A stretch of 64,000 nt of DNA from Acidimicrobiales bacterium (GTDB lineage Bacteria; Actinomycetota; Acidimicrobiia; Acidimicrobiales; Aldehydirespiratoraceae). Every line of letters starts with the position of its first letter. The stretch's first letter is position 1. The DNA lies in the NCBI GenBank assembly GCA_029247365.1, contig JAQWLJ010000002.1, positions 73,111 through 137,110 on the forward strand, read 5' to 3'. Both the position numbers and the translations under genes were made by a program. The notes under the pieces are model-generated. The model was given only the letters and a program-made list of their open reading frames with translations, made no database searches and was not told the DNA's origin. Below are positions 23,883 through 63,597 of this stretch, piece by piece.

Positions 23883-23890
23883 AGCGAGTC

Positions 23891-26780: not shown

Positions 26781-27258
26781 CCTTCCAACGCTCAGCCATG
26801 TCTTCGTTTTGGATGCGCTCCTGAAGCAACACGATGCCCTCAAGGAGCGCTTCGGGGCGAGGCGGACAGCCAGGTACATAGACGTCGACGGGGATGATCT
26901 GGTCGACACCCTTCGTGACGGAGTACGAGTCCCAATACGGGCCGCCACAGTTGGCACACGAGCCCATCGAGATCACGTACTTGGGTTCGGGCATCTGCTC
27001 GTACAGCCTTTTGACCGACGGGACCATCTTGTCGGTGACCGTGCCTGACACGACGAGGAGGTCGGCTTGGCGAGGAGATGCCGGCAACGGAATGACGCCG
27101 AGACGCATAACGTCGTAACGAGGCGACGCGAAGGCGGCGCCCATCTCGATCGCGCAGCACGCGAGACCCCACTGGTACACCCACATGGAGTACTTGCGGC
27201 TCATGTTCAGCAGCGTCTGGAGACCACCGCCGACCTTTCCGGATTCGACTAGGCCCAC
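26758..27258 (-). CDS. nuoB: NADH-quinone oxidoreductase subunit B (EFG-less set)
   Basis: N2-cluster ligand blocks [19 protein letters not shown] and GCPPRPE. Confidence 0.9.
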
Positions 27259-27614
27259 TTGAGCACTCCCTTGCGCCAGGCGTAGATCAGGCCCAGCAAG
27301 AGGATGAAGATGAAGATCGCCATCTCGATAAGGCCGAAGACTTCGTAAACCTCAAGCCGGGTAGCCCAGGGGAAGATGAAGACCGCTTCGACGTCGAACA
27401 TGACGAAGAGCAGGGCAAAGACGTAGTACCGGATGTTGGCCTGGGACCACATGTCGCCGGTGGGGTCGACGCCCGATTCATAGGCCTCGAGCTTGGCTTC
27501 GGTGGGCTTGCTGGGTCGGAAAATACGACCAAGACCAAGGAACGCGCCGACCAGCGCAACGCCGGTGAGACCGAAGATCCCAACGGTCAGGTAACTACGA
27601 AGAAAATCCGACAC
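27249..27614 (-). CDS. nuoA: NADH-quinone oxidoreductase subunit A (EFG-less set)
   Basis: 121 aa with 3 TM segments. YESG.DP and FDVE..F..PW blocks. GTG start. Confidence 0.9.
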
Positions 27615-27870: not shown

Positions 27871-28929
27871 TCATTCGGCGTACACGTCGTGTGGCGTGAC
27901 GGCATTCCAGAGGATGGTGCTCGGGTTGTAGGACACCGAGTCGGGCTGCGTTGTGCCGGTCGAATCGGTAGCCCGGGTACGGATCTGGTGGAGACCAGGG
28001 GTCAGCTCGGCTCGAAGCCGAAACGGCGTCCACGACCACCGGCCGGGCAGCTCAAGGAGTTCGGCGTCGTGCCATGGGCCGCCATCGAGCGACCAGTCAA
28101 CGGCAGTGACGCTGCCGGCACCACTTCGGGCATACCCGAGCACGTCAAGTGGGCCCGATACGACGACCTCACCCCACTCGAGTGCCAGTGAGCTCTTCAC
28201 CGGATGGATCGTGGCTGGGCCCCGATCGGTGCCATCGGGGTCGCGGTGGCGGTAGTAGATATCGTTGCGCCACGACGGAACCCACTCGACCGCAATGTCG
28301 ATCTGCTCGACCCACTTCATCGAGTAGGCACCGATCCAACCAGGCACGAGCAGGCGAGCGGGTGCGCCGTGGGCGGCGGTCAGCAGTTGGCCGTTCATCT
28401 CGAGCGCGATGAGCGTGTCAGGGTCACGGGCCTTGTCCAGCGGCATGCACATCCGGGGCGCTTCGCCCTCGGCGTTGTCATGATCAAGACCTCGGGGACT
28501 GACCCAGGCCGCCGCCGCAGCGGGCTCGGCGAGCGCGAGGACGTCGGCGAGGCGGGGGCCACGCCACGACGCCATGCCCATCGCACCGAGGATCCACTGG
28601 GTATCAGCTTCCAGCTTCGAGGGGGCGCGGCCGCCGACGAACTCGAATAACCGACGACCGTTCCCCGCGCACTCCAACCAGGCATCAACGTCGTACTGGG
28701 GTAGCGCCTGCAGATCGCTAAGCGACACGGTGACGGTTCGGCCCGCCGCGTCGCCAGCGATGGTGAGCGACCAACTGTCGGCATCGACTGCGGGAGCGTC
28801 ATCAACGTTGCAGACGAAGAAGCGATCGATCGGCGTCTGGTCGACCCCCAGCGCCATCGTGGTCGGCTCAAGGCTCCGCTTGTGCACCCGAAAGCCGACG
28901 TCGGACTTGCCGAAACCCGAGCCGGTCAT
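27871..28929 (-). CDS. Sulfite-oxidase-family molybdopterin oxidoreductase (Mo domain plus dimerisation-type domain), no evident signal peptide
   Basis: LECAGNGRR block (Mo-ligating Cys context CAGNxR). ATG 28929 overlaps the upstream stop (ATGA). Confidence 0.75.
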   Translation of the reverse strand: MTGSGFGKSDVGFRVHKRSLEPTTMALGVDQTPIDRFFVCNVDDAPAVDADSWSLTIAGDAAGRTVTVSLSDLQALPQYDVDAWLECAGNGRRLFEFVGGRAPSKLEADTQWILGAMGMASWRGPRLADVLALAEPAAAAAWVSPRGLDHDNAEGEAPRMCMPLDKARDPDTLIALEMNGQLLTAAHGAPARLLVPGWIGAYSMKWVEQIDIAVEWVPSWRNDIYYRHRDPDGTDRGPATIHPVKSSLALEWGEVVVSGPLDVLGYARSGAGSVTAVDWSLDGGPWHDAELLELPGRWSWTPFRLRAELTPGLHQIRTRATDSTGTTQPDSVSYNPSTILWNAVTPHDVYAE

Positions 28930-29396
28930 GGAGGCGTTCCGGCGAAGGGCACGACGCGAAGCGCCAACCACCGTGCGGTAGCCGCGAGCATCCCTCCTGG
29001 GCCACTGCGCGCCATCACGATCTGCAGCCGCCCAGCCACACCGGCTCCCGACGGGCGGGTTAGTTCGACCGTCATCGCCGCGACGGCAAAGATCACGATC
29101 ACCAACGCGACACCCGCTACCCCTCGACGCAGCGCCGGTACGACATCGACCGGTGGGGTCACCGCCACGACGAGCGCAGCGGCGAGGATGAGTAGACCGG
29201 TTGAGGGGCTTGCGTTGCGGGTCAGTTCAGCAACGTCGTCGCCCAACGAGAACCCGCTGAAGCGATCGTCGATGTACCCGACCACGGGCCCAAGGAGCAT
29301 GAGTGCTGCTGCGGCGGCGGTGACCACGATGACGACCTCACGCGCCTCGTCCCACGGAATCGGCAGTTCATCGGCGGGGGCATCGTCGGCCGCCAC
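28926..29396 (-). CDS. Small integral membrane protein, His-free, unknown function
   Basis: GTG 29396 lies 4 nt after the nuoN stop. About 156 aa with 3-4 hydrophobic segments. It is sandwiched by coupling overlaps. Confidence 0.5.
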   Translation of the reverse strand: MAADDAPADELPIPWDEAREVVIVVTAAAAALMLLGPVVGYIDDRFSGFSLGDDVAELTRNASPSTGLLILAAALVVAVTPPVDVVPALRRGVAGVALVIVIFAVAAMTVELTRPSGAGVAGRLQIVMARSGPGGMLAATARWLALRVVPFAGTPP

Positions 29397-35025: not shown

Positions 35026-35343
35026 CTAGCCCCTGAGCAGCGCCACGTCATCGGCGGTCGCATCCCGGCGACGACGGTTGATCGCCACAACGATGGCGAG
35101 GCCGACGACGACCTCCACCGCAGCGACGACGAGAACGAAAAACACGGCCAACTGGCCACCGACGTCATTGAGGTCGGCACCGAAGGCCACAAACGAGATA
35201 TTGACCGCGTTGAGCATCAGTTCGACACACATGAACATCACCAGCGGGTTGCGTCGGATCAGCAGACCGGCTGCGCCGATGGCAAACATCAGCGCCGACA
35301 GCACGAGGTAGTACGAGGTCGTGAGTTCGAGTTCGGCAGGCAT
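35026..35343 (-). CDS. nuoK: NADH-quinone oxidoreductase subunit K (14-subunit set)
   Basis: 105 aa with 3 TM segments and a [12 protein letters not shown] block. Confidence 0.9.
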
Positions 35344-35996
35344 CAGACGACCTCCCCTCGTGCAGGCTCGTCAACCGGCTCGTGGTGATCTTCATCGTTG
35401 GCTCCCGCAGGAGCAAGCGGTGCAAGATCCATACTGGCGGGCTCGAGATCATCGAGCAGATCGTCGGCCTTGACCGTGCGGGTGAGCACGACAGCGCCCA
35501 CGACGGCGATGGTAAGGAGGGCAGCGGTGATTTGGAACGCCAACAGGTAGTCGGTGAACAGCACGCGGCCGATGCGTTCAATATCGGTGTAGCCGTTGTC
35601 GAGCGCATCCTCACCGATGCCCGGTGCCGACACCGAACCGGTGGCGCCATCGACAGCTGCGACGACGGTGATGATCCCGCCCGCTGCGAGTGCAGCACCG
35701 ATCACGGCGGCAAGCGGCTTCTGCCCGGCAATCGGTTCGACGCCGAGGTCTTCTGCCTTGTCGACACCCAGCAACATAATGACGAACAGAAAGAGGATGA
35801 CGATCGCACCTGCGTACACGACCACCTGAACGGCGGCGAGGAAGTGTGCTTCCTGGATCACGAAGAGGACCGCGACCCCAATCAGCGTCTGAATCAGGAA
35901 CAGCGCAGAGTGCACCGGGTTGCGGGCTGCGATCACGCCCAACCCTCCGGTAACGATCACGACGGCGGCCACAAAGAAGGTCATGAACTCAGCCAT
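35343..35996 (-). CDS. nuoJ: NADH-quinone oxidoreductase subunit J (14-subunit set)
   Basis: Start set at ATG 35996 ([13 protein letters not shown]); the tracked 36572 start runs through nuoI. Acidic/His C-terminal tail. Confidence 0.85.
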
Positions 35997-36624
35997 CGGA
36001 GGATTCCTCCTGTGCTGGCTCCGGATCGCGAACGCCGTAGCCGAGCTCGCCCGCCCAGTGCACAACACCTTCGTAACGGTGATCCCCTGCTGGGGACGTG
36101 GCCCGCATCCAGCCAGAGGTGAGTTCGTCATCACCTGGTCGCCAGTCTTCCCACGGAAGTTGCTGGGGCTTGCCGTTATCGCCGACGAGCAGCTCGTCCT
36201 TGGTGTAAATCGCATCGCTGCGGTTCGTGAACGAGAACTCGAACAGCTTCGACTCGGTGATCGCCTGGGTGGGGCACGCCTCAACACACAGATCACAGTG
36301 GATGCACCGGAGGTAGTTGATCTCGTACACGTAGCCGAAGCGTTCGCCCGGCGAGGCTGGCGCGGCCGGGTCGTTGTCTGCGCCACGCACATAGATGCAC
36401 TTGGCGGGGCACACACCGGCGCAGAGCTCACAGCCGATGCACTTCTCCATACCGTCCTCGTAGCGGTTGAGGACGTGGCGACCGTGGAAGCGTTCGGGTT
36501 TCGCCCGCTTTTCGTCGGGCGCGCCTTCCTTCGCCTTGCCACCGCGGTAGTCACCGGTGACACGGTCTTCAAACAGCTTCTTGAAGGTGACCACGAAGCC
36601 TTTGAGGTACGAACCGTCAGCCAC
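35989..36624 (-). CDS. nuoI: NADH-quinone oxidoreductase subunit I (14-subunit set)
   Basis: [12 protein letters not shown] and [12 protein letters not shown] motifs. The start is either GTG 36624 (8-nt overlap with nuoH) or ATG 36663. Confidence 0.9.
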
Positions 36625-44203: not shown

Positions 44204-44797
44204 TCAGCCCCCGATCGTCAGGCCGGCGGTCTGACCGTCGCGCTGCTCGATGGTGATACCGGCGCCGCCCCCGTTTGCCTGACGGCGCTGGGTGAGTTCA
44301 CCGGATTGGATCTTCTCGTGCACAGTGAAGATCGCGTGAAGGAGCGTTTCGGGGCCCGGAGGGCAACCCGGCGCGTACACGTCGACGGGCACAACCTGAT
44401 CGACGCCCTGCACGATCGCGTAGTTGTTGAACATCCCGCCGCTCGATGCGCACACGCCCATGGAGATGACCCATTTGGGCTCCATCATCTGGTCGTAGAC
44501 CTGTCGCAGCACTGGCGCCATCTTCTGGCTCACACGGCCCGCAACGATCATGAGATCGGCCTGACGGGGGGACGCCCGGAAGGTTTCCATGCCGTATCGG
44601 GCGAGGTCGTAGTGCGCCGCGCCGGTGGCCATCATCTCGATCGCGCAACAGGCGAGGCCAAACGTCGCTGGCCACAGGCTGCGGGCGCGGGCCCACTGGA
44701 CGAGGTTCTCGATGTTGCCGGTGAGGAAGTTGTGCTCGAACCCCTCGAGGCCGTGGTCGGCAATATCGCCGACGTCGCCGATCCCAGGAATCTTCAT
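44204..44797 (-). CDS. nuoB: NADH-quinone oxidoreductase subunit B (14-subunit set)
   Basis: [21 protein letters not shown] and GCPPGPE blocks. Confidence 0.9.
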
Positions 44798-45252
44798 CAG
44801 GCCGCCTCGCGTCCGTCGGTACCGACCCGTCGGATCGTGGACTCGGCGGTGCGTTCAGGCGACACAGCCCCTGACGGCGCCATGGTCTGTTTGAGCGGAC
44901 CCCACTCCAGGGCACCGTTGGAGATCAGGTACACGAACGACTCGAAGACAGCGAATGTGAACACCATGATCACGACGAGGCCGAAGAAGCCGAGACCCCC
45001 GAAGGCCACCGCATACGGGTAGAAGAAAATGATCTCAATGTCGAAAACGATGAAGATCATCGCAACGAGGAAGAACTTCACCGGAAAACGCTCGGGCGTC
45101 TCTTTGGTCGGCACGATGCCGCACTCGTAGGCCGCACGCTTGGCGTGCGTGGGGTTACGGGGAGCCAAAAGTCCTGAGGCGATGAAACTGCCGGACGCAA
45201 ACAAGAATGCCAGCACGAACAGCGCCAGCAATGGGAGGTACTGGCCCAGCAT
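44797..45252 (-). CDS. nuoA: NADH-quinone oxidoreductase subunit A (14-subunit set), extended C-terminus
   Basis: YECG and [10 protein letters not shown] blocks. 151 aa. Confidence 0.9.
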
Positions 45253-45255
45253 GGC

Positions 45256-46374
45256 TTACGCCCCTTCGAACTCGGCCCGGCGCGCCATCACGAGTTTGTC
45301 CCGCTCATGAAGCATGTAGCAGAGGGCGAAGAAGATCAGCAGGGAGCCGATCGTGACCATGGCCGGCCGGAAACGAACGTTGCCGAGGTCACGGATCATC
45401 ACGACCGAGACGACTGGCTCTTCGGTATCGACCACGGGACGCTGGGGAGCGGTACCCGGCAGGTTGGTGATCGACTCCTCGGTAACTTGCTGAAGCTGGA
45501 CGATGCCGTAGCGGGTCGGATGGGTGATCTGCGCGGTCTGGCGGACCTTGGTCCAGACGCGGTCCCAGACATTCGGATCGTCGGGCAGGCCTTCCTTGCC
45601 GCCGATGGTGAAGGCATCGAGCAGCTTGAACTCCACCTGACTACCGAACGAGAAGTCGTTCGATTCAAGGACAATCGCAATCGCCGATGCTTGCGCTTCG
45701 CCGGATTCGGCAGTGGAGAGGAGGGTCCAGCCGCCGAGCTCGTCAGCGTCCGGATCGATGATCCCCGGGGCGACCGCAGCAAGCTCGGAGAGTGTCGTGG
45801 CCTCGTTCTTTGACTGCTCTTCGGCGGCGAGGTCGTCGATCTCCGCGTCGCTGAGACCTTCCGTCTGATCGGCGGTGAGGGTGTCGGCGGTGACGGTGCC
45901 AAACTCGAGCCAGGCTGTCTGCACCTCACCCAGGTGGGCCACCTCGTCGCTGGTCAGGCCACCTGTTCCCATGGTGAGCCAATTCGACCCATAGTCAGAC
46001 TCGGCAGCCGCGCCGGCATCGACCACGATCTCGTGAGCAGTCGGCAGCGACTCCGCCTGGAGAATGTTGGCCTCGTCGAGCGCGGCGTAGGTCAGGCGAC
46101 CCTCGTCGTCGGTTCCCTCGACGATCTCAACCTCGACCCAGGTAGGGGCATCCCCCGCCCAGCCGATGCCGTAGATCCACCAGATTGAACCCATGATTGC
46201 CATCCAGCCGAACAAGGCAGCAAGCGCAAGAAGGGTGCCGAGGCGGGGACCGGAGTTGGAGCTCAGGAGCAACCAAACCGAGCCCATCAAGGTGACCGCC
46301 ATGGCGAGCACCGCAAGGAAACCGCGGATTTCAGGGTCCCAGGCAAGACCTGCGATCAGGTCGAGCATCTCCAT
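45256..46374 (-). CDS. Membrane protein with large acidic soluble domain, unknown function
   Basis: 372 aa with N-terminal hydrophobic segments, an acidic middle and a C-terminal TM. The start shares 1 nt with the cytochrome c stop. The stop lies 3 nt before the nuoA start. Confidence 0.55.
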   Translation of the reverse strand: MEMLDLIAGLAWDPEIRGFLAVLAMAVTLMGSVWLLLSSNSGPRLGTLLALAALFGWMAIMGSIWWIYGIGWAGDAPTWVEVEIVEGTDDEGRLTYAALDEANILQAESLPTAHEIVVDAGAAAESDYGSNWLTMGTGGLTSDEVAHLGEVQTAWLEFGTVTADTLTADQTEGLSDAEIDDLAAEEQSKNEATTLSELAAVAPGIIDPDADELGGWTLLSTAESGEAQASAIAIVLESNDFSFGSQVEFKLLDAFTIGGKEGLPDDPNVWDRVWTKVRQTAQITHPTRYGIVQLQQVTEESITNLPGTAPQRPVVDTEEPVVSVVMIRDLGNVRFRPAMVTIGSLLIFFALCYMLHERDKLVMARRAEFEGA

Positions 46375-47864
46375 CAGAGTGTCCTCTCGAACGCAACGAT
46401 CGCATCGATCTGGTCAGCGGTGAGTAGCGCCGGGTACCGGAACTCGACGCCGGTACCCGGGCCCATACCAGGGCCCTGGGGGTTCGATTCGGTGAGCGGC
46501 CCGAAGCCGGGCATCTGGCCATTGCCACCCGAGCCGCCACGGCCGTAGGGAGCACCCATGGCCTGGCCCCGCTCGATGAAGGTCGCGTGACCCGCAGCCG
46601 TCTCGAACTGGTCGAGTGTGGAGCCGCCACGGAGGTTCGGGCCAAAGAAGCCACCACCCTGGACGTACTCGTCGAGGATGGCTTCGTCGGTGCCATTCGC
46701 CTCGATCATGTACGGGCCGGTCGCATCAAAGCTCCAGCCATAGGTATGGCAACGGGCGCAGCTATAGGTACCGGCAGCCGCCTCGTTGGCGAACAGGATT
46801 TCGCCGTACTGCAGGTAGGCAGCCTGACCCTCGAACGAGTCAGGGGTCGACAGGATCTCGAGCGCCGCGAAGCGCCACTTTTCCTCGTTGCCCCCGTCGT
46901 CGAGCGACGGGTCGGCCTCGAGAGCAATCTCTCGAGCGGTCTGCTGGGCGGACTGGACGTCGGCCCACCAGGCGTCGAATGCGGACTGCAGCGGCTGGTC
47001 TGCTGCGCTGTTCGACGTCTTGAGCGCCTCTCGCGCCGCCATATCGGCGTCGCATTCCGGCACCCCATCGGCTGCAGCACAGTCGAAACCGAACTCGTCA
47101 CGAGCGATGAGCCTCACAGCCCACGCGGCCTCGTCAGCGCTGGCCTGCGCAGCGCGCAGATCGACGGCCCACGACTCGTCGCTCGTTGCCATGATCAGAT
47201 CTTTTGCACCGTCCTCAACTCCGCTCGCGACCTGCTCACGGATCTCATCTTCGGTGATCTGGATGTTGCGAAGATAAAAGAGGATCTCTTCGAGTTGCTG
47301 ATCGGTGAGCGGACCACCGCCGCCGGCACCCCAGGCCGGCATGACACCGTTGCGGCCGTAATTCAGGGTGTGGAGAACTTCGTCTTCGGTGTAGCGCGAC
47401 AGCACAGTGTCGATTGCAGGCGCCTTCCATGACACTTGGGCGACGAACTCACCCGACGCGGATGTGATCGCGGTGCTGACCGCACCGCCCGAGCCCTCGG
47501 GGCCGTGACAGCTGACGCACTGGGCGCCCTCGACGTAGATCTCCTCGCCACGGTTGGTGAAGATCCGCCAGGTATCGATGTCGCGGCCTTCGTGCCGGCC
47601 CGGCTCGCCAAGCCAGTAGAGCGGCAACGTGACCGCTGTAATAGTGAGCAGCACAAGGCTGGTGCCAAGCGCTAGGTCGAGCTTCTTGCCCTCAAGATCC
47701 TCGTCGGACAGGTACGGCTTCCGGTTCGAGGCAAGCTCGAGCTCAGATCCGATCTCATCTCGAGCTGAGCGGATGTTGAAATAGATGTAGACGAGCCCAC
47801 CAAAAAAGACGATCGCCAAAATGACGAGGCCGATGGTTCGTTGTGTTGATGCAGCGAACAACAT
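46374..47864 (-). CDS. Membrane-anchored dihaem c-type cytochrome (two class-I domains split by a long linker)
   Basis: CVSCH (about aa 116) with GVMPAWG, and CARCH (about aa 369) with GQMPGFG. Two N-terminal hydrophobic helices. Confidence 0.8.
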   Translation of the reverse strand: MLFAASTQRTIGLVILAIVFFGGLVYIYFNIRSARDEIGSELELASNRKPYLSDEDLEGKKLDLALGTSLVLLTITAVTLPLYWLGEPGRHEGRDIDTWRIFTNRGEEIYVEGAQCVSCHGPEGSGGAVSTAITSASGEFVAQVSWKAPAIDTVLSRYTEDEVLHTLNYGRNGVMPAWGAGGGGPLTDQQLEEILFYLRNIQITEDEIREQVASGVEDGAKDLIMATSDESWAVDLRAAQASADEAAWAVRLIARDEFGFDCAAADGVPECDADMAAREALKTSNSAADQPLQSAFDAWWADVQSAQQTAREIALEADPSLDDGGNEEKWRFAALEILSTPDSFEGQAAYLQYGEILFANEAAAGTYSCARCHTYGWSFDATGPYMIEANGTDEAILDEYVQGGGFFGPNLRGGSTLDQFETAAGHATFIERGQAMGAPYGRGGSGGNGQMPGFGPLTESNPQGPGMGPGTGVEFRYPALLTADQIDAIVAFERTL

Positions 47865-47909: not shown

Positions 47910-48794
47910 CTAGTGCGAAGACTGGCCGATGCAGTTGGGCCCCTCGGCCTCCTGGCCGGTGGTATTGGTGCCGATCGGCGGGCCCTGGATGATCGTGCCG
48001 GTGTCGACGGTGAGGGTGCCGGCCGCATCGACACTCATGGCGAAGCGGTCCATGCCGCGCGGGGCTGGGCCACCACGCTTCTCGCCTACGCGGTTGTACT
48101 GCGAGCCGTGGCAAGGGCACTCAAACCACTGTGAGGTGACGCACTCGGGAACACGGCAGCCGAGATGCGGACACTTCTGATAGATCGCGATGACGCCGCC
48201 GTCGAGGCCAAGGTTGATACCCGCTTCCATACCAGCGAGCTCAGGCGCCGAGTAGGCGACCCGCGCCTTCTCAACCGCTCCGTTGGGATACTCGGTGAGC
48301 CACATCCGACCCTCGGCGCGGTACAAAAAGCCGTTGCTGTTGCGGATCTCTGTGAGCACGTCGCTGACGAAACCAACCTTGATAGCGGAACCGAAGCCAC
48401 CGCCGAGTTGGGGCCAGAGGAAGGCAATGCACGCCAGACCGAAGCCACCGAGGCCGATCTGCATCATGAGGATGATCGTTCGGTTGAAGAACTGACGTCG
48501 ACTGACCCCGATGACCTCGGGATCTGGCGGCACGTACGGAGCCGGTGGGGCCGACTGCCGGGCGGCAAGCACCAGCTCATTAGACGCAGCCTTGCGCTCA
48601 AGGACCTGTGCCTTCTCGACCTGCTTACCGGTGAGCGCTGACTCCTCGCCGAGCACGGTCGACGGCTTGTCACGCTTGCGCGTTTCTCCGGACAGCACAC
48701 CGACAGCCTCGTCAGCGTCCCGACCCTTGAGGGTCACGAGCGCGGCGAGGCCACCGAGGACCACCAACACGATGAGAGCGATTGCGAGTGCCAT
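47910..48794 (-). CDS. Rieske [2Fe-2S] subunit of a Rieske/cytochrome b complex
   Basis: CPHLGC ... CPCHGSQY boxes and an N-terminal TM anchor. Confidence 0.85.
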   Translation of the reverse strand: MALAIALIVLVVLGGLAALVTLKGRDADEAVGVLSGETRKRDKPSTVLGEESALTGKQVEKAQVLERKAASNELVLAARQSAPPAPYVPPDPEVIGVSRRQFFNRTIILMMQIGLGGFGLACIAFLWPQLGGGFGSAIKVGFVSDVLTEIRNSNGFLYRAEGRMWLTEYPNGAVEKARVAYSAPELAGMEAGINLGLDGGVIAIYQKCPHLGCRVPECVTSQWFECPCHGSQYNRVGEKRGGPAPRGMDRFAMSVDAAGTLTVDTGTIIQGPPIGTNTTGQEAEGPNCIGQSSH

Positions 48795-48810: not shown

Positions 48811-49596
48811 TCAGAGCTCGAAGAACAGGCCGGCTTCCCATGGGAAGACGAAGTTGAAGCCAGGACCGCGGAAGAAAGAACCGATCATGACGAGTACCGC
48901 CCAGAACATCAGATGGACGGTCATGAGCGAGATCGCAAACTTGCGGTCTTCGGGCTTCGGGGACGGGTTGCGGTCGATGTACGGCGCAAACATGAGGATG
49001 AAGAGGCCGATACCCGGGATGGTCACGCCGGCGACCATCGGGTGGAACATGGTGAGCAGCTCCTGCAGGCCGAGGAAATACCACGGCGCCTTGGAGGGGT
49101 TCGGGGTCTCGTTGAAGTTGGCCAACTCGAGCAACGGGGCGTTGACAAAGATCGAGAAGATCAGGGTGAATGCCGTGATGAAGAGCGCTGCGGCGAACTC
49201 GACCACGAGCAGGTGCGGCCACGTGTGGACCTTGTCCTGAGGCAAGCCCTTGACGTCTTGAATCGAACCGGACTTGACCACCGTAAGCAGGCGCTGGGTG
49301 TGACCACCCGGGCCGGTCGGGACCGGACCGCCACCCGAGGCTGCGGGCGCAGCCGCGGTGGGCGCCGTGGCGACGGCGGTGCCGCCACCGGCGTCGTCGC
49401 CACCATCGGCCTTGGCCTTGGCCGCGCGCGAACGCTCAAGCAAGTGCGCGGGGATCTTGCTGGCTGCTTCCTGCTGCTCGGCCGACATTGCCTCGACAGG
49501 AGCTTCCGGTGGAGCATCGGCAGCAGCCTTGGCGGCCGCGGCCTTGGCGCGAGCCTCTTCGGCTCGCTTCCGGAGATGTTCGGGGACTTCGGTCAT
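48811..49596 (-). CDS. Cytochrome b C-terminal part / subunit-IV (PetD-like), with ~110-aa Ala/Lys-rich N-terminal extension
   Basis: HTWPHLLVVEF and SKAPWYFLGLQELL (Qo-site PEWY position) blocks. Confidence 0.8.
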   Translation of the reverse strand: MTEVPEHLRKRAEEARAKAAAAKAAADAPPEAPVEAMSAEQQEAASKIPAHLLERSRAAKAKADGGDDAGGGTAVATAPTAAAPAASGGGPVPTGPGGHTQRLLTVVKSGSIQDVKGLPQDKVHTWPHLLVVEFAAALFITAFTLIFSIFVNAPLLELANFNETPNPSKAPWYFLGLQELLTMFHPMVAGVTIPGIGLFILMFAPYIDRNPSPKPEDRKFAISLMTVHLMFWAVLVMIGSFFRGPGFNFVFPWEAGLFFEL

Positions 49597-49614: not shown

Positions 49615-50409
49615 TTAGAGCGGACCTGAGATGCCGCCATCTTTGCGGACCCGCCAGAAGTGGATCGCCATAAAGATGACGAGCACGAACGGAAGCAAGA
49701 GGACGTGCAGCACGTACCAACGTAACAATGTGTCGGTGCCGATCTCGACGCCACCGAGCAGCACGAATCGAACCTGTTCACCAAAGACTGGCGTGTACCC
49801 CATCATGTTGGTACCCACCGTCACCGCCCAGAGGGCCAACTGATCCCAGGGCAAGAGGTAGCCGGTGAACGAAAGCAGCAAAGTGAACTGTAGTAGATTG
49901 ACGCCGATCACCCAGTTGAACTCTCGAGGGGCCTTGTAGGCGCCGTGGTAGAAGACGCGCGCCATGTGCAAGAACACCGACAGGACCATGAGGTGCGCGG
50001 CCCATCGATGCATGTTTCGCACAAGCAGACCGAACGTCACCGAGTTCTGCAAGGTGTAGATGTCGTCCCAGGCCGCGGCGGCGGTCGGACGGTAGAAGAA
50101 CATCAAGAAGATGCCGGTAACCGTCAACAGGATGAAGAGGAAGAAGCTCAGGCCGCCAAGGCACAGCGTGTAGCTGACCTTGACCGCATGACGCTTCACC
50201 TTCACCGGGTGCAGGTGGTACAGCACCGAGTTCATGATCACATAGCTGCGGTTTCGGGGGCTGTCGGTGTAGCCCTTTCGAAAGATCGAGCCGGGGCGGA
50301 AGATGGAGTTCCAGGCCTGGCTGCCCTGCACCTGGTCGGTGAGGTTCGCCATCTGGTCCTGCATCCGCTGCGGTAGCGGCTTCTTGACTTCGTCATCGGT
50401 GGTCGCCAT
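49615..50409 (-). CDS. Cytochrome b6-type (N-terminal four-helix) subunit
   Basis: Haem ligand pairs MHRWAAHLMVLSVFLH (H-x13-H) and HVLLLPFVLVIFMAIH (H-x14-H). TLCLGG block. Confidence 0.85.
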   Translation of the reverse strand: MATTDDEVKKPLPQRMQDQMANLTDQVQGSQAWNSIFRPGSIFRKGYTDSPRNRSYVIMNSVLYHLHPVKVKRHAVKVSYTLCLGGLSFFLFILLTVTGIFLMFFYRPTAAAAWDDIYTLQNSVTFGLLVRNMHRWAAHLMVLSVFLHMARVFYHGAYKAPREFNWVIGVNLLQFTLLLSFTGYLLPWDQLALWAVTVGTNMMGYTPVFGEQVRFVLLGGVEIGTDTLLRWYVLHVLLLPFVLVIFMAIHFWRVRKDGGISGPL

Positions 50410-50438
50410 TGAAATGTGGTTTCTCCCGCGTGCCCGGC

Positions 50439-50855
50439 TCAGCCGAGACGCATTCCGTATCCGTAGCCGTGCGAGTTGGTGCGCTGGTGAGCATCGCCAC
50501 CGGCGGCAGGATCACCGATCTTGCCGAGGATGATGACGCCCGTGGGGCACCGATCGACACAGAGTGCACACCGGGTGCACACGTCGTCATCAATCGTAAA
50601 GATCACTTTGTCGTTAGGGTCGTCGCCCGGGAGTTCGGTACCGATCGCCTCATCGACGGCATCGGTTCGCACCATGTGGATGCACTTCCACGGGCAGATG
50701 TCAACGCAGCCCTCGCACATGATGCACTCGGACTGGTCGATATGGATGAACTGCTTTGGCTTGACCTGCGAGGTGAGCCACGCAGCGTCGACCTGCTGCA
50801 GGACGTAGTCGTCGCGGAACTCCGGGAGCGGAGGATTCGCGTCGGTCGTGGTCAC
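50439..50855 (-). CDS. 2x[4Fe-4S] dicluster ferredoxin-like protein
   Basis: CIMCEGCVDICP and CTRCALCVDRCP motifs. GTG 50855 overlaps the upstream stop (GTGA). Confidence 0.75.
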   Translation of the reverse strand: MTTTDANPPLPEFRDDYVLQQVDAAWLTSQVKPKQFIHIDQSECIMCEGCVDICPWKCIHMVRTDAVDEAIGTELPGDDPNDKVIFTIDDDVCTRCALCVDRCPTGVIILGKIGDPAAGGDAHQRTNSHGYGYGMRLG

Positions 50856-51304
50856 GACTCTGCCCCCTCCTTCACCAGAGGACGACCAAAGTGGCTGCGC
50901 GCGACCGGCTTCTCGGCCTGCTGCTCGCCACGCTTTTGCCAGGCGGACCACATCCAGATGTTGCCGCCGAGGGCAACGATGTAGATGCCGACAGCGATGA
51001 GGTCACGCAGGACGATGTAGGTGATGCGGATCGGCGACCAGCCGCCGTCCTCTTGGCTCTTCAGAATGTCACCGGGGCCAAAGAGGATCTTGTCGACGCG
51101 CCAGTTGAGTTCATTGTCGGCCCAGGTCAGCCACTGATGCGGCACGACGCCGTACACCCAGAACATGAGGAAGAAGACGACCAGCGAGCCCATCATCGCC
51201 TCGCCCCAGGTCAGGACTTGGTCGGCCGGGCGGCGCTTCTGGTATGCGAGGATGCCACCCACGATGAGGGCAGTGACGATCAGCGATGTCACGAAGGCAA
51301 CCAC
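50852..51304 (-). CDS. Small membrane protein (about 3 TM), unknown function; first gene of the array
   Basis: 150 aa. GTG start with an AGGAG 8 nt upstream (51312-51316 on the + strand). Confidence 0.55.
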   Translation of the reverse strand: MVAFVTSLIVTALIVGGILAYQKRRPADQVLTWGEAMMGSLVVFFLMFWVYGVVPHQWLTWADNELNWRVDKILFGPGDILKSQEDGGWSPIRITYIVLRDLIAVGIYIVALGGNIWMWSAWQKRGEQQAEKPVARSHFGRPLVKEGAES

Positions 51305-51591: not shown

Positions 51592-52386
51592 GTGACCGAA
51601 GTACCCGAGCACCTTTTACAGCGAGCCGCCGAGGCCCGCGCTCGCCTCTCTGGAGGGCCCGCGCCCGACTCAGGCGGAGGCGAGAGCGCTGCCGCACCGG
51701 TTCCGGCCGTCGCCGCGCCCGACCCCACGCCGGCCGTGCCCGAGGAGCCCAAGGCTCCCGAGCCGGTTGCGCCCTACGTCGAGGCACGTATTCGCCGTAA
51801 GACGCTGCCGATCTGGATCATCCCCGTTCTCATCTTCCTGCCGTTCTGGGCGATCTACTACGTCGGCTACCTCGAGAACCCCACCGTTACCGGTGGCTTC
51901 GCCTTCGAAGGGGGAGAGGCCTACGGCGGCCAGTGCGCCGGCTGCCACGGCGGTGCAGGCGGCGGTGGCACCGGTCGCCAGCTCAGCGGAGGCGAGGTCA
52001 TCGCCACCTTCCCCGCCAACGACGAGGGCGTCGCCCAGATGGTGTACTGGGTATCCAGCGGCACGGCGGGCGCAGTCGACGGCGTGTACGGCGACCCTGC
52101 CCGCAGCGGCGGCCAACGCCAGGCCGGATCGTTCGGCGTCATGGGCGGATTCGGTGGCAGCCTGTCGACCGAGGAACTCGCTGCAGTCGTGTACCACGAG
52201 CGTGCGGCCTTCGGTAATCTTGATGACGCCACAATCGAGCACGAGATTCACCTGCTCGAAGAACTGGTGCATGTGGTCGACGACGCTGGCGAGAGCTTCG
52301 ACGGCGCCTCCCTTGACGACGTCCGTCTCTGGGTCGACGCAGCAAGCGCAAAGCTCGTCGCCGACGGCGAAATGGCTGCCGAGTAG
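51592..52386 (+). CDS. Membrane-anchored monohaem c-type cytochrome
   Basis: GTG 51592 preceded by GGAGA. One TM (LPIWIIPVLIFLPFWAIYYVG), one CAGCH motif, and an acidic C-terminal domain. Confidence 0.75.
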   Translation: MTEVPEHLLQRAAEARARLSGGPAPDSGGGESAAAPVPAVAAPDPTPAVPEEPKAPEPVAPYVEARIRRKTLPIWIIPVLIFLPFWAIYYVGYLENPTVTGGFAFEGGEAYGGQCAGCHGGAGGGGTGRQLSGGEVIATFPANDEGVAQMVYWVSSGTAGAVDGVYGDPARSGGQRQAGSFGVMGGFGGSLSTEELAAVVYHERAAFGNLDDATIEHEIHLLEELVHVVDDAGESFDGASLDDVRLWVDAASAKLVADGEMAAE

Positions 52387-52471: not shown

Positions 52472-53113
52472 TCAGTCGTCGATGAGGCCGGCGCCTGCGC
52501 CGCGCAGACGTGACGCCTCGGTGTCGGGTGCGTAGGTCCGGTGGGCGTACGCCTCCAGGCGGGCCCACGCCGATGGGTCGACCGTCCAGCCCTCAGCCGG
52601 TGCCGTCAGCCGGTCACCATTGAGGTGACCTGGTTCGACGATGACGTTCGCCTCCGTCGCAAACAACGAGCCCTGCCCAGTGGCGTGGTCAGCTGCGACC
52701 CCGAGCGCCGAGTCGTCCCAGCGGCCGACCAATGCCGTTGCGGTGCGTGCAGCTACGACCGACAGGGCGAAGCCGAGAAGCAGCGGCTGCCGAACCCGCC
52801 CGAGCTCAACGCGCCCTTCGGCAAGCCGCCCCGCCAGATCGGCACACACCGTGCCGACCACAACCGGGTCGAGTGCCAGGGGGTGATCGGCCCATGCAAG
52901 CCCAACATCAGGTGGGGCAACCTCGACATGGGACCGCCCGTCGCGCCAGTCGAGAAGGTCGACCAGTAGTTCCGGCCCGGGGAGCCCGTGATCGGCGAGC
53001 CACCGGGCGACTCTGCCGGCGTCGGATGCCAGCCCCCACGGCATGCCCGCACCCTTCGCCGCCTTCTTTGCCATCGCATCGATCTCGTTCGACGACAGAA
53101 CCAACGCTGTCAC
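52472..53113 (-). CDS. Hypothetical protein (reminiscent of DUF3726)
   Basis: 213 aa. The N-terminal block SNEIDAMAKKAAKGAGMPWGLASDAGRVARWLADHGLPG recalls DUF3726 from memory only. ATGA overlap with the upstream gene. Confidence 0.5.
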   Translation of the reverse strand: MTALVLSSNEIDAMAKKAAKGAGMPWGLASDAGRVARWLADHGLPGPELLVDLLDWRDGRSHVEVAPPDVGLAWADHPLALDPVVVGTVCADLAGRLAEGRVELGRVRQPLLLGFALSVVAARTATALVGRWDDSALGVAADHATGQGSLFATEANVIVEPGHLNGDRLTAPAEGWTVDPSAWARLEAYAHRTYAPDTEASRLRGAGAGLIDD

Positions 53114-54846
53114 CGCGCGCCGACCTCGCCGAGCGGCGGGTAACCCCAGTCATCGATGGTGTCGACGGGCAGGTCGTCGAGCTCGTCCGGGAACGGGGCG
53201 TGGCGAAACATGATGATGCGCACCCAGCGATCGGAGCGCGGATCGAACCGGGTGGCACCGAAGTACGACAGCTTGCAGCGGAGCATGTCGATCGGAAGCA
53301 CGTCAGCCGAGATCGTGTTGTCGCGGATCTCCGCATACGGAAAGGCGACCGACTGCTGGGCTCGGCGGGTCACAAACCGATGCTCGGGGTGCACGAGCAG
53401 GAAAGCGGCGACTGTCGCCTCGCCGTCCCAGGCGAGAAGGTCAGCGTGCAGCTTCGCAGCGTCGCGCCCGGGCGCAAGCGGCGACTCATAGGGCTCGATG
53501 AGTTCCTCGTGTCGCTCCCCCATTCGCGGCTCGAGCTTGTCCTCCGAGACGTACCAGGCCCGCGCTGTCTCATGGTGGGTGTCCCAGTCGATACCAATCG
53601 CCCAGCCGTAGACGTCGGCGACCAGTGCCGTGAGCTCGCTGGTAGTCATTGAGCCCTCGATTGCGAAGAACGCGCCCTCGTCGGACCCCATCTCGGTGGC
53701 GAGATCGTCGACTAGGTCGCTGTACGGCTCGAGCACCAGCGACACGAGCTGCTCCTGGCCCTCGAGATCGAGCGCGTCGTCGGCCCAGCGGACCAATCGG
53801 TCCCAAGGCTCGGGTCCTGCGATTAGTGCGGGAGCAATGTCGGCGAGGGCGTCGAGGTCGGCAACCAACGCCGCAACCTTCTCCATCTGGAGCTCGTGAA
53901 CAGACCGCCAGCTGGCTGCGTTTACCTGCGCTCGTTCGAGGAGCTCAAGGAACCGAGTTTGGGCCTCGAGTCCAGCCGTCGGCAACGCCCGCACCCGTGC
54001 GAGCGCCGTCTCCTTTGCCACGATCCAGTTGCTGAACAGCGACGGATGGTTGATGACAAACGGCGCCATGCCGAGCCCGGTGGCGTTGCCGACCCCGAGA
54101 CTCCGCCGCAAGGCTGGATCCATCGGAACCGCTGTAGCCGGTGAACGAAGCGTCGCGAGGTGCTCGACAAGGTCGAGGGTGAAGGCCCGGATCAAAAAAA
54201 CCGTGAGCATCTCGGCCTGGAACGGGCCCTCGAGTTCGGGGCGGTCGGCGATCCGCTCACGGTCGGCAAGGCCGAACTTGCCCGACCCGTAAACCGCAGT
54301 CGTCCGCATGAGGTAGCCGACCTCGTCGAGCTTGGCGGGCTCGGGTTGCTCGCCGGCGGCGAGGCGATCGACCACGTGTTCGAACAGGCGCACCGACCGG
54401 TTGGCTCGGGACAGGGTCAGCTCGCCTGCCGAGACCCGTCCGGCCTCCTGGAGCGGGACGTTGGCGGCAAGGCGTTCGATCGTCGCATCGTCGGCGACAC
54501 CGTCGACGAGTGCGTACGTCGAGTCCCATGCCTGAGCGATCACCCGATCCGACCGCTGGTCAGCCGGCAGGTCGTGAGCGAAGGCGACCAGGCTGTAGGT
54601 GCGCTCGGGACCACGGGCCTCATAGACCGCGACGCCCACACCCGGCTCGGCGATGTCGAACCGAACCCGCTCGAACGTCCAGCGCTCGCGGGCGAGTCGG
54701 CGAAGAAGGACCCGCATGAACGACAAGCGCGACTGATGGAAGGAGCCGAGCCGGGCAAGCTTCATCACGGTGTTGGGCGGGCGCAGCTCTACCGCAGGCG
54801 GTGTCGTCACGGCGCTAACGTACCGCGGACCCGTGGCCCGCAACAC
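53110..54846 (-). CDS. Large conserved-looking hypothetical protein, no family recognised
   Basis: 578-aa uninterrupted ORF with strong GC3 bias. An alternative start is ATG 54765 (MKLARLGSFHQSRL). Confidence 0.6.
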   Translation of the reverse strand: MLRATGPRYVSAVTTPPAVELRPPNTVMKLARLGSFHQSRLSFMRVLLRRLARERWTFERVRFDIAEPGVGVAVYEARGPERTYSLVAFAHDLPADQRSDRVIAQAWDSTYALVDGVADDATIERLAANVPLQEAGRVSAGELTLSRANRSVRLFEHVVDRLAAGEQPEPAKLDEVGYLMRTTAVYGSGKFGLADRERIADRPELEGPFQAEMLTVFLIRAFTLDLVEHLATLRSPATAVPMDPALRRSLGVGNATGLGMAPFVINHPSLFSNWIVAKETALARVRALPTAGLEAQTRFLELLERAQVNAASWRSVHELQMEKVAALVADLDALADIAPALIAGPEPWDRLVRWADDALDLEGQEQLVSLVLEPYSDLVDDLATEMGSDEGAFFAIEGSMTTSELTALVADVYGWAIGIDWDTHHETARAWYVSEDKLEPRMGERHEELIEPYESPLAPGRDAAKLHADLLAWDGEATVAAFLLVHPEHRFVTRRAQQSVAFPYAEIRDNTISADVLPIDMLRCKLSYFGATRFDPRSDRWVRIIMFRHAPFPDELDDLPVDTIDDWGYPPLGEVGAR

Positions 54847-61363: not shown

Positions 61364-62620
61364 TCAGAGGGTCGATGCCACTTCGGCGACCGCCTCAATC
61401 GTGGCATCGATCTCGGCCGTACCGTGGGCGAGGGACGGGAAGAGTGCCTCATAAGCGCCAGGAGCGAGGGCAATGCCTCGATCGAGCATGCCGTGGAAGA
61501 ACCGCGGGTACACGCCGTTGTCGGCGGCAGCCTTGGCTGAGTCGAAGTCGTGGGGTTCGATGTCGGTGAAGAACAGGCCCAGCAATGGGCCCACTCGCGG
61601 CAACACCGCGCTGACTCCAGCAGCTGCGAAGGCGTCGAGCATGCCCTCCTGGAGCCGGCTGGCGGTGGCGGTGAGCTGCTCGTAGGCATCGGTGGTGAGA
61701 TGGCTCAGTGCCGCAAGACCGGCGGCGGTGGCGAGCGGGTTCCCCGACAGCGTCCCGGCTTGATACACACCGCCGAGCGGGGCCAGGTTTCCCATGGCCT
61801 CGCGGCTGGCCCCGAATGCGCCCATCGGCAGACCGCCACCGATGACTTTGCCAAAACACCAGACGTCGGGCTGGACACCGAACCACGCAGCTGAACCACC
61901 CCGACAGAGTCGGAAGCCGGTGATGACTTCGTCGAACAACAGGAGCGCACCGACGCGATCGCATTCGGCGCGAAGCCCTTCGAGAAAGCCAGGTGCTGGG
62001 GCGACGAGGCCCATGTTGGCTGCCACCGGTTCGACGCAGACGACGGCGATCGACTCGTCGAGTTCGGGCACGACGTTGTACGGCGCCACGATGGTGTCGG
62101 CGATCGCCCCGGCGGTGACGCCCTCAGAGCCCTTGAGACCCTGCTGAGCCACGCCAGAGCCACCGGCAACGAGCAGTGAGTCGGTGTGGCCGTGATAGTT
62201 GCCGGCGAACTTCACGATCTTGTCGCGACCGGTCGCGCCCCGGGCGAGGCGGATCGCACTCATCGCAGCCTCGGTGCCGCTCGACACCAATCGCACCATC
62301 TCCATCCCAGCCACGCGATCGCACATCTCTTCCGCGATACGGACCTCATTTTCGGTCGGCGCGCCGTAACTCGTCCCTCGCGACGCAGCATCGTTGATCG
62401 CCGCGAGGATCGCCGGATGGGCGTGGCCGAGGATGCTCGGGCCATAGCTCTGGACGAAATCGATATAGCGCTTGCCTTCGACGTCGTAGACGAAGGGCCC
62501 TTCGCCACGCTCGACGAAGTATGGCCTGCCCCCAACCGAACCAAAGGCCCGCACTGGTGAGTTGACGCCGCCGGGGATGACGGCCTGGGCGCGTTCGAAG
62601 AGGGATTCGTTGGTGGTCAC
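61364..62620 (-). CDS. hemL: Glutamate-1-semialdehyde 2,1-aminomutase
   Basis: 418 aa. GGVNSPVRAF, LLFDEVITGFR and GKVIGGG (PLP Lys) blocks. Confidence 0.9.
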   Translation of the reverse strand: MTTNESLFERAQAVIPGGVNSPVRAFGSVGGRPYFVERGEGPFVYDVEGKRYIDFVQSYGPSILGHAHPAILAAINDAASRGTSYGAPTENEVRIAEEMCDRVAGMEMVRLVSSGTEAAMSAIRLARGATGRDKIVKFAGNYHGHTDSLLVAGGSGVAQQGLKGSEGVTAGAIADTIVAPYNVVPELDESIAVVCVEPVAANMGLVAPAPGFLEGLRAECDRVGALLLFDEVITGFRLCRGGSAAWFGVQPDVWCFGKVIGGGLPMGAFGASREAMGNLAPLGGVYQAGTLSGNPLATAAGLAALSHLTTDAYEQLTATASRLQEGMLDAFAAAGVSAVLPRVGPLLGLFFTDIEPHDFDSAKAAADNGVYPRFFHGMLDRGIALAPGAYEALFPSLAHGTAEIDATIEAVAEVASTL

Positions 62621-63597
62621 TGCAGCCCTTCGGCGATCAGTCGGGAGAAATAGGTCAGGACCAGGTCGGCGCCGGCTCGCTTGATAGCCCCCACGTGCTC
62701 GAACGCAATCGCGTCGAGTTCGAGCCAGCCATGCTGGGCGGCGGCGTGCACCATCGCGTACTCGCCACTCACGTGGTACGCCGCGATCGGGATGTCGAGC
62801 TCCTGGCGGGCACGGGCGATGAGGTCGAGGTAGGGCATGGCGGGCTTGATCATCACCATGTCGGCACCTTCGCCGATGTCTTCTCGGATCTCTTCCATCG
62901 CCTCGCGGGTGTTGGCGACGTCTTGCTGGTACCCCTTGCGATTGCCGCCACCTTCGATGGTGACATCAACGGCGTCGCGGAACGGGCCGTAGAGGGCGGT
63001 GGCGAACTTGGCTGCGTAGGCGAGGATCGCGACCTGGTCGAAGCCGGCGTCGTCGAGCGCCTCGCGAATCGCAAAGACCTGGCCATCCATCATTCCGCTC
63101 GGCGCGCAGATGTCGGCCCCGGCGGTCGCCTGAGCAACGGCGATCTGCTCGTAGAGCTCGAGCGTGGCGTCGTTGTGGGGCTGACCGTGCTCGTCGAGCA
63201 CCCCGCAGTGCCCGTGGCTGGTGTACTCGTCGACGCACAGATCGGCGATTACCACGAGGTCGTCGCCGTGATCGTCCTTCAGATCCTGAATGGCCAGCTG
63301 AATGATGCCATCGGGATTCCACGCCTCGGAGCCTTCCGGGTCCTTGTGCTCAGGCAGACCGAACAAGACAACGGCTGGGACGCCAAGGCCGATGAGCTCG
63401 CTGACCTCCTGGCGGAGCGATTCGCGGGTGTGCTGGAACTGGCCAGGAAGCGAACTGATCGGGATTGGCGCGTCGCCGCCTTCCTTGACGAAGAGCGGCG
63501 CGATCAGGTCATCAGGATGCAGTCGGCTCTCGCGAACCATGCGACGAAGGGGCTCGGTACGACGAAGCCGACGGAGACGGCGCTGTGGGAAGGTCAC
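62617..63597 (-). CDS. hemB: Porphobilinogen synthase (ALA dehydratase)
   Basis: 326 aa. PQRRLRRLRR start, DLCVDEYTSHGHCG and MIKPAMPYLD blocks. 4-nt overlap with hemL. Confidence 0.9.
   Translation of the reverse strand: MTFPQRRLRRLRRTEPLRRMVRESRLHPDDLIAPLFVKEGGDAPIPISSLPGQFQHTRESLRQEVSELIGLGVPAVVLFGLPEHKDPEGSEAWNPDGIIQLAIQDLKDDHGDDLVVIADLCVDEYTSHGHCGVLDEHGQPHNDATLELYEQIAVAQATAGADICAPSGMMDGQVFAIREALDDAGFDQVAILAYAAKFATALYGPFRDAVDVTIEGGGNRKGYQQDVANTREAMEEIREDIGEGADMVMIKPAMPYLDLIARARQELDIPIAAYHVSGEYAMVHAAAQHGWLELDAIAFEHVGAIKRAGADLVLTYFSRLIAEGLQ

Follow-up and report, generated by a model that had tools for sequence, protein, structure and literature searches.

The stretch of DNA analysed here (hereafter the window) comprises 64,000 nucleotides (nt) of a contig from an Acidimicrobiales bacterium (JAQWLJ010000002.1), and contains seven adjacent genes, all on the minus strand, in which a small ferredoxin with two [4Fe-4S] cluster motifs and a three-helix membrane protein, which we call TM150, stand directly in front of the genes for a Rieske/cytochrome b complex. 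From sequence and gene order, we consider it reasonably probable that the ferredoxin is a dedicated iron-sulfur (Fe-S) subunit on the cytoplasmic side of a b6-type menaquinol:cytochrome c oxidoreductase, probably held there by TM150. The genes of this module, and the start of the operon that follows it, are as follows.

51304..50852, minus strand: TM150, a 150-residue three-helix membrane protein and the first gene of the module (open reading frame, AlphaFold2 model, synteny)
50855..50439, minus strand: the ferredoxin, a 138-residue 2x[4Fe-4S] dicluster protein (cluster motifs, Pfam Fer4)
50409..49615, minus strand: cytochrome b6-like protein, 264 residues (PF00033)
49596..48811, minus strand: subunit IV, PetD-like, 261 residues (PF00032)
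48794..47910, minus strand: Rieske [2Fe-2S] protein, 294 residues (PF00355)
47864..46374, minus strand: membrane-anchored dihaem cytochrome c, 496 residues (Pfam cytochrome c families; CVSCH and CARCH)
46374..45256, minus strand: 372-residue membrane protein that closes the seven-gene module (placed by position)
45252..44797 onward, minus strand: nuoA, the start of a complex I operon directly after the module

The two leading genes are tightly joined. TM150 begins with a GTG that has AGGAG 6 nt 5' of it, and the ferredoxin's GTG at 50855 and the stop codon TGA of TM150 share bases within the sequence GTGA (tcac at 50852-50855 of the plus strand), with a Shine-Dalgarno sequence, GAAGGAGG, about 8 nt 5' of this start. 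The ferredoxin stop codon lies at 50441..50439, and a gap of 29 nt (50410..50438), which contains GGGAG, leads to the cytochrome b6 ATG at 50409. This is the layout that a first-pass annotation of the same DNA had described (the GTGA overlap, proteins of 138 and 150 residues and the 29-nt gap), and at the sequence level it is confirmed. A mechanical list of open reading frames (ORFs) also holds a longer version of the ferredoxin, with 170 residues and a start at 50951; because all 120 of the listed homologues have 137-138 residues, beginning M-x-x-T-D-A-N-P-P, we take the 138-residue start to be the correct one. The ferredoxin has 2115 homologues and TM150 has 1709 (every one of the latter annotated as hypothetical); both are thus real genes rather than chance ORFs. 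Scans for promoters and terminators gave no more matches than shuffled sequence did.

The arrangement is conserved well beyond this contig. A scan with one genome per species matched at least 599 stretches, of which at least 578 encode a relative of the ferredoxin, and we examined the best 80 loci. These are Acidimicrobiales and fairly close relatives, the closest matches being metagenome-assembled genomes (MAGs) named Ilumatobacteraceae, Acidimicrobiaceae or Acidimicrobiales, and the window belongs to a member of the order of the marine type. In every one of the 80, TM150, ferredoxin and cytochrome b6 stand next to one another in an unchanged order, and, where the contig allows, are followed by subunit IV, Rieske protein, cytochrome c, the 372-residue protein, nuoA and nuoB. 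The distance from the TM150 stop to the ferredoxin start is -4 to +22 nt in 78 of these loci, a tight spacing that points to translational coupling. The ferredoxin is 78-94% identical across the Acidimicrobiales at a fixed length; identity to the window proteins in the 80 loci is 80-94% for the ferredoxin, 82-96% for cytochrome b6 (full-length matches) and 38-84% for TM150, so that within these loci the ferredoxin equals cytochrome b6 in conservation.

More distant full-length ferredoxins, 34-61% identical to that of the window, come from MAGs of other Actinomycetota, and the same seven-gene order is found in five distant actinobacterial lineages (L081, L082/83, L084/85, L086/87 and L114). The flanks there differ, consisting of Ccm or ResB cytochrome c maturation genes, cox genes or a cbb3 oxidase, with not a single nuo gene. 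Since the order is kept despite the different flanks, the conserved unit is the seven-gene module itself, and its link to complex I is local to the Acidimicrobiales. By blastp, four of the distant lineages show identities of 34-49% for the ferredoxin, 40-47% for the Rieske protein and 68-72% for cytochrome b6; the rates of divergence of ferredoxin and Rieske protein are thus similar, and that of cytochrome b6 is lower. Wherever the module is kept, the two cluster motifs are complete and show no variation. The coupling of ferredoxin and TM150 to Rieske/cytochrome b genes, proposed earlier from the window alone, is therefore borne out by synteny in 80 of 80 loci and in five distant lineages.

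The ferredoxin itself has features that would suit a bound subunit. Its cluster motifs, CIMCEGCVDICP and CTRCALCVDRCP, both follow the pattern CxxCxxCxxxCP, and the protein scores above the cut-offs of the Pfam families Fer4, Fer4_21, Fer4_10, Fer4_7 and Fer4_9, with a best E-value of about 1e-10. The motifs are set within a conserved N-terminal lead-in of about 40 residues, an insert of about 35 residues between them and a conserved C-terminal tail rich in Gly and Tyr. All eight cluster cysteines are invariant in 32 homologues, and so are 74 of the 138 columns overall, including much of the 40-residue lead-in and the C-terminal HGYGYGMRLG. Such conservation is typical of a protein whose interfaces are large and fixed, and the near-invariance of the tails outside the clusters would be less expected of a free carrier than of a buried subunit. 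The sequence contains neither a signal, nor a Tat (twin-arginine translocation) motif, nor a membrane segment, and the protein is therefore presumably cytoplasmic. Searches against the PDB and curated families returned generic dicluster matches only (FwdF/G, NdhI/NuoI, PscB), and when 1.84 billion representative proteins were searched exhaustively, 627 matched the ferredoxin at E<=1e-3. Several apparent fusions of TM150 with the ferredoxin, or of the ferredoxin with cytochrome b6 (P0245, P0290, P0282, P0309, P0252, P0265 and others), are frameshifted or chimeric reads, and for that reason we rejected them as Rosetta-stone evidence.

Among the matches outside its own clade are P0380 (615 residues) and P0387, two GltD/NfnB-like flavoproteins of the NAD(P)/FAD type that carry a dicluster domain at the C-terminus. 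By blastp, residues 1-112 of the ferredoxin align with the C-terminal domain of P0380 at an E-value of 4e-21, with the lead-in and the long insert included, and the ferredoxin matches P0387 at 2e-18, compared with 3e-5 for the window's own NuoI. The P0380 gene (locus L088) overlaps a Rieske gene, and a protein search with the dicluster domain only led to three further clusters (L109, L110 and L111) that each encode, in this order, a flavoprotein, the ferredoxin domain, a Rieske protein, cytochrome b, subunit IV and cytochromes c; the ferredoxin of L111 is called as a separate gene of 125 residues, with a 4-nt overlap with the flavoprotein gene. A metagenome scan with the whole of P0380 gave generic GltD/NfnB relatives only, without a Rieske/cytochrome b context. 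Outside its own clade, the closest relatives of the ferredoxin thus appear, on sequence comparison, to be the dicluster domains of flavoproteins linked to Rieske/cytochrome b complexes. The architecture of L109-L111 is that of the anammox Rieske/cytochrome b complexes that contain an NAD(P) reductase (PMC5600118, PMC12954380), and it is through these metagenomic clusters that we made the comparison with the Kuenenia type. A GltD-like or Pyr_redox gene is present in L088 and L109-L111; there is none in the window module, the 80 loci or the five distant lineages.

A second connection to these complexes is found in cytochrome b6. The protein carries an N-terminal extension of about 57 residues, W-x-S-I-F-R-P-G-S..., that is conserved in all ferredoxin-bearing lineages (W.SIFRPG in 79 of the 80 loci), and in any b6 or bc1 topology these first residues are cytoplasmic. 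The shorter motif S[IV]FR[PH] is common to the ferredoxin clade and the flavoprotein-type clusters, being present in each of the three when the L111 protein is given its corrected start; in these clusters the extension reads V-W-R-S-I-F-R-H-G... or S-K-S-V-F-R-H-K.... It is absent from ExtP, whose family model begins at window residue 58, and from the cyanobacterial b6 protein, which aligns only from residue 78. Being present in the ferredoxin-bearing lineages and absent from these two, the extension tracks the ferredoxin module, and we regard it as a candidate docking surface for the ferredoxin. In published AlphaFold3 models of the Kuenenia complexes, a reductase with four Fe-S clusters lies on the n-side of the cytochrome b dimer, and an extra inter-monomer haem b is ligated by a histidine of the extension, His43 of Kuste4571 or His62 of Kustd1481 (PMC12954380).

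The remaining subunits identify the type of complex. The best PDB match of cytochrome b6 is the cyanobacterial b6 protein (2zt9_A, E-value 4e-47), in which the four haem histidines are present, CLGG falls on CLGG in register and the C-terminal GISGPL is aligned. The cysteine motif for haem ci/cn, YTLCLGG, occurs in 79 of 79 loci. With its split gene, four histidines and Cys-x-Gly-Gly, the protein is of the b6/haem ci type, the attachment of haem ci itself being predicted. The NCBIfam model cytb_ExtP gives 305 bits (cut-off 290), covering only residues 58-261, and the models for the cytochrome b6 subfamily and for actinobacterial QcrB give 212 and 120 bits. Subunit IV has an N-terminal extension of about 100 residues, beginning MTEVPEHLRKRAEEARA, and matches NCBIfam ExtQ weakly. 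Its Qo motif is APWY (SKAPWYFLG in the window), with SKAPWY found in 67 of 70 loci and in all four of the distant lineages checked. A glutamate of subunit IV (W-P-H-L-L-V-V-E-F) seems to match the one that, in firmicute enzymes such as that of Bacillus, ligates a low-potential haem ci. For the Rieske protein, the best PDB matches are 9rk4_A (E-value 8e-14) and 9rk3_A (4e-11), which from names, match and timing we take to be structures of the Rieske proteins of the Kuenenia Rieske/cytochrome b complexes, and which come ahead of PetC (1e-10) and QcrA (4.5e-5). Box II of the Rieske protein reads CPCHGSQY in the window; it was recovered in 51 loci (and not in 14 others), with CPCHGS.Y in 50 of them, CPCHGS(Q/K)Y in 41 and CPCHGTQY in one, and it reads CPCHGSKY in four of four distant lineages checked. 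This combination of Ser and Tyr goes with a high midpoint potential of 300-350 mV (PMC3509893), and the potentials measured for the Kuenenia Rieske proteins are +303 and +335 mV (PMC12954380). Taken by sequence, the core is closer to members of the APWY clade, or subfamily G, than to b6f, bc1 or the actinobacterial QcrABC complex. In the account by Kao and Hunte the APWY clade is heterogeneous, with a split cytochrome b noted in Ilumatobacter and no member characterised at that time (PMC4122944).

The dihaem cytochrome c, whose position is conserved in all lineages examined, is presumed to accept electrons from the Rieske protein. The 372-residue protein, which has no Pfam or NCBIfam match, has an acidic domain in its centre, with helices on the N-terminal side and one helix at the C-terminus, and is found in the 59 loci whose contig extends that far. 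All five distant lineages have a protein of 166-341 residues without a Pfam match in its place, with weak N-terminal homology (E-values of 1e-6 to 3e-4); detectable conservation is limited to the N-terminal helices and the C-terminal helix.

For TM150, neither Pfam nor NCBIfam, the CCB1-4 families included, gave a match at E<=0.01. An AlphaFold2 model with a mean pLDDT (predicted local distance difference test) of 79 consists of three long helices, 2-24, 33-74 and 96-124, and fold and profile searches of the PDB gave noise only, with no structural or sequence relative. The positive-inside rule predicts that the N-terminus lies outside and the C-terminal tail in the cytoplasm. The distant lineages have a weakly homologous small protein at the same position (E-values of 7e-7 and 1e-3), with the motif [VI]P[SH]xWLxxAD in common; the Trp-rich loop of TM150 is VPHQWLTWADNELNW. 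We consider TM150 a candidate anchor or accessory subunit.

Taken together, we propose the following mechanism. The complex would belong to the "APWY" or subfamily G lineage of Rieske/cytochrome b complexes, with the ferredoxin sitting on an n-side face built by the N-terminal extension of cytochrome b6, where TM150, whose C-terminal tail is conserved and predicted to be cytoplasmic, may use this tail to help keep it in place. The two [4Fe-4S] clusters would link haem bH and haem ci, that is, the Qi site and the low-potential chain, to a cytoplasmic redox partner, and the ferredoxin would thereby be a stand-alone counterpart of the anammox dicluster domain that joins cytochrome b to a fused NAD(P)/FAD flavoprotein. 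If electrons flow outward, the oxidation of quinol at the Qo site would send one electron to the high-potential Rieske protein and cytochrome c, and the other through the b haems and the clusters to a soluble acceptor, a step for which a very low-potential haem bL could provide the push. Menaquinone is the low-potential quinone used by actinobacteria. We lean weakly towards this outward direction because a high-potential Ser/Tyr Rieske protein would here be combined with low-potential menaquinone, as has been argued for Kuenenia. Inward flow, with a reduced ferredoxin or flavoprotein feeding the Qi site, appears nearly as likely; an n-side transfer of electrons from ferredoxin or ferredoxin-NADP reductase (FNR) to haem ci has long been proposed for b6f (PMC5600118). 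The first-pass annotation had suggested that an Fe-S module attached to a Rieske/cytochrome b core could provide an extra low-potential entry or exit for electrons; this remains plausible and is better grounded through the homology to the flavoprotein domain and the published model of an n-side path (PMC12954380), while we infer the binding to the complex, the electron transfer and its direction. We put forward more tentatively, as possible if somewhat doubtful, that the enzyme, which would carry out the menaquinol:cytochrome c step of aerobic Acidimicrobiia and related Actinomycetota, is a quinol-driven electron-bifurcating ferredoxin reductase that makes low-potential reductant from respiration, or a true ferredoxin:quinone reductase acting through the Qi site, with the ferredoxin hard-wired beside haem ci. 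If true, it would be a minimal natural model both for the ferredoxin-to-haem-ci cyclic flow in b6f and for the bifurcation proposed for the anammox complexes.

Several observations weigh against a dedicated electron-transferring subunit. The module encodes neither a flavoprotein nor any other obvious partner, donor or acceptor for the clusters, and the need for a low-potential reductant driven by quinol is not obvious, because the hosts live as aerobic heterotrophs and have a complex I that is complete and oxidises NADH. No natural fusion of the ferredoxin with cytochrome b occurs among the matches of the representative search, and an AlphaFold2 model of the ferredoxin, built from the 32-sequence alignment, has a pLDDT of 38 and is unusable for fold comparison. 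The histidine of the FRHG or FRHK motif of the flavoprotein-type clusters is replaced by Pro in 79 of 80 loci of the window clade; if that histidine corresponds to the predicted ligand of the extra haem in Kuenenia, this relay would be missing in the window clade. Finally, two peripheral members of the family, in L112 and L113, have no adjacent cytochrome b. In L112 (1..3628), a ferredoxin paralogue of 116 residues, which has no N-terminal lead-in and shares 55% identity with the core of the L082 ferredoxin, is divergent from an operon of FAD-dependent oxidoreductase, nuoA, nuoB and nuoC, with no cytochrome b within 6 kb. The L113 protein is a singleton relative with an altered first motif.

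Three other explanations were considered. The ferredoxin might be an ordinary soluble carrier that is merely co-transcribed, and that serves other enzymes or a complex I lacking NuoEFG, as ferredoxin does with NDH-1 in cyanobacteria. A protein without a membrane segment would suit this role, as would the presence in the same window of an 11-subunit complex I without NuoEFG, and the truncated paralogue of L112, which on one metagenomic contig is the sole hint of a link between the ferredoxin family and complex I. Gene order argues the other way, however: NuoE, NuoF and NuoG are all present in the complex I operon that adjoins the module, the 11-subunit operon (nuoA at 27614..27249 to nuoN at 18528..17020) is some 23 kb distant from the ferredoxin gene, and each of the five distant lineages has cytochrome b6 in the module and no nuo gene beside it. 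Near-invariant N- and C-terminal tails and an overlap with a membrane-protein gene would moreover be unusual for a free carrier, and the closest relatives are domains of flavoproteins linked to Rieske/cytochrome b complexes, not partners of NDH-1. We therefore consider a soluble carrier unlikely. In the first-pass annotation a complex I without NuoEFG was said to lie downstream, with the ferredoxin as its possible missing donor. Such an operon does exist, as the second and more distant of the two, whereas the adjacent one has NuoEFG; with this distance, and a linkage to complex I that is not conserved, the proposed donor role is not supported.

Assembly or maturation, for instance the attachment of haem ci to Cys83 of cytochrome b6, would be a different role for both TM150 and the ferredoxin. 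In cyanobacteria and chloroplasts haem ci is attached covalently by the CCB proteins, which have no known homologues outside oxygenic phototrophs. The invariant haem ci cysteine (79 of 79 loci) would fit such a function, no CCB-type gene was found in the module by a Pfam scan, and TM150 stands first in the operon and has a Trp-rich loop. That loop, however, is predicted by the positive-inside rule to face outward, while haem ci is attached on the cytoplasmic side, and TM150 matches no CCB, Pfam or NCBIfam family; on these two grounds we rejected TM150 as a CCB-like maturation factor for haem ci. A redox-active dicluster protein that is conserved like a catalytic subunit, and homologous to an electron-wire domain, would also be an atypical assembly factor, and the cytochromes b of L109, L110 and L111, which read WGLGG or FGLG at this position, lack the haem ci cysteine and yet keep the ferredoxin domain. 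An assembly role is accordingly improbable in our estimation. It seems equally improbable that a complex-bound ferredoxin senses redox state or oxygen, or merely caps the Qi side structurally, instead of serving as a through-route for electrons. The missing partner enzyme would be explained in this way, and the Pro in place of the FRHG histidine may mean that a relay cofactor is absent; against it, both full cluster motifs are invariant in all lineages that keep the module, and in the published models of the flavoprotein type the homologous domain lies between cytochrome b and the flavin site.

An electron-transferring subunit on the cytoplasmic side can be compared with several known systems. 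The Kuenenia type is the nearest: it has a split cytochrome b with an N-terminal cytoplasmic extension, an APWY-type Qo site, a Rieske protein of the Ser(/Tyr) type and, encoded beside Rieske/cytochrome b, a dicluster [4Fe-4S] module homologous to the window ferredoxin. In the window, by contrast, the Fe-S module is a free-standing 138-residue protein, with no FAD/NAD(P) domain in the gene set, it is preceded by a clade-specific three-helix protein, the c-type cytochrome is dihaem rather than hexa- or octahaem, and the hosts are aerobic actinobacterial heterotrophs. With the b6f complex of cyanobacteria and chloroplasts, the module has in common the split b6 and subunit IV and the Cys-x-Gly-Gly motif for haem ci; it differs in having no genes for cytochrome f or PetG/L/M/N, in APWY where b6f has PEWY, in the roughly 57 extra N-terminal residues of its b6 and in an operon-encoded, seemingly dedicated ferredoxin, the Rieske protein being the only Fe-S subunit of b6f. 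Geobacter ExtOPQ (Cbc6), from the extHIJKLMNOPQS cluster, belongs to the same APWY lineage, and the window cytochrome b6 passes the cut-off of the ExtP equivalog model. In the ext cluster, however, there are multihaem cytochromes but no ferredoxin, its ExtP lacks the N-terminal extension, and the label "ExtP, selenite/tellurite reduction" is misleading for the window protein and should not be transferred to it. ExtM, considered as a counterpart of the ferredoxin, is ruled out as it is a 12-haem cytochrome (PMC5877670). NuoI/NdhI, PsaC and PscB resemble the ferredoxin in size, in two CxxCxxCxxxCP motifs with an insert and in their docking extensions, but the similarity is generic (E-values of 1e-5 to 1e-10, far below the family cut-offs) and none of them is associated with a Rieske/cytochrome b complex.

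Rieske/cytochrome b complexes are textbook enzymes with a fixed core of three subunits. For cytochromes b of subfamily G, Fe-S and NAD(P) oxidoreductase partners are known from anammox genomics, complexome data and models, and these anammox complexes are the only described versions with a cytoplasmic Fe-S arm; the organisms are hard to grow, and the arm is known only from models. What appears to be new here is the free-standing dicluster ferredoxin with a dedicated three-helix protein, the conservation of the seven genes as one module in Acidimicrobiia and their actinobacterial relatives, and the cytochrome b6 extension that tracks it. Searches of full-text literature turned up nothing on these three points and no account of the ferredoxin or of TM150; a brief mention in older reviews is possible. 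The module would amount to a stripped-down arm, made of a dicluster domain and a small membrane protein, and gives a context to families that are annotated just as "4Fe-4S binding protein" and "hypothetical protein". Since its carriers, the Acidimicrobiia of marine, freshwater, soil and activated-sludge habitats, are abundant, aerobic and partly cultivable, two questions on such complexes become experimentally approachable: whether a b6-type low-potential chain can exchange electrons with cytoplasmic Fe-S centres, and what role a high-potential Rieske protein plays when paired with menaquinone.

Some further features of the locus deserve mention. Subunit IV and a monohaem cytochrome c encoded by a divergently oriented gene (likely GTG start at 51592) open almost identically, with the cytoplasmic N-terminal peptide M/V-[TV]-E-[VI]-P-E-H-L-[RL]-x-R-[AS]-x-E/Q-A-R, encoded at 49596..49540 (minus strand) and 51592..51650 (plus strand). 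The peptide is present in both proteins in 41 of the 80 loci (for example L004, L006, L007 and L009) and missing from the distant lineages, and it could be a docking or targeting peptide. Just past this cytochrome c gene (52472..54846, minus strand), a 578-residue protein without a Pfam match (54846..53110) overlaps a DUF3726 protein (53113..52472) by 4 nt. On the other side of the module the minus strand carries the two complex I operons one behind the other, a 14-subunit set with NuoEFG at 45252..~29400 and the 11-subunit set at 27614..17020, separated by a gene for a sulfite-oxidase-like molybdoenzyme (28971..27871). The mechanical ORF that contains NuoJ (35343..36572, minus strand) has 409 residues with the NuoJ domain only in residues 210-363; no separate NuoI gene was located in the first operon, and the first 200 or so codons of this ORF may overlap NuoI in another frame, or the gene may start later. 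About 10 kb upstream of the module are the haem biosynthesis genes hemL (Aminotran_3) and hemB (ALAD), at 61364..63597 on the minus strand; an Aminotran_3 gene also flanks the module in two of the distant lineages, L081 (12555..16052, together with ALAD) and L082 (9562..10845).

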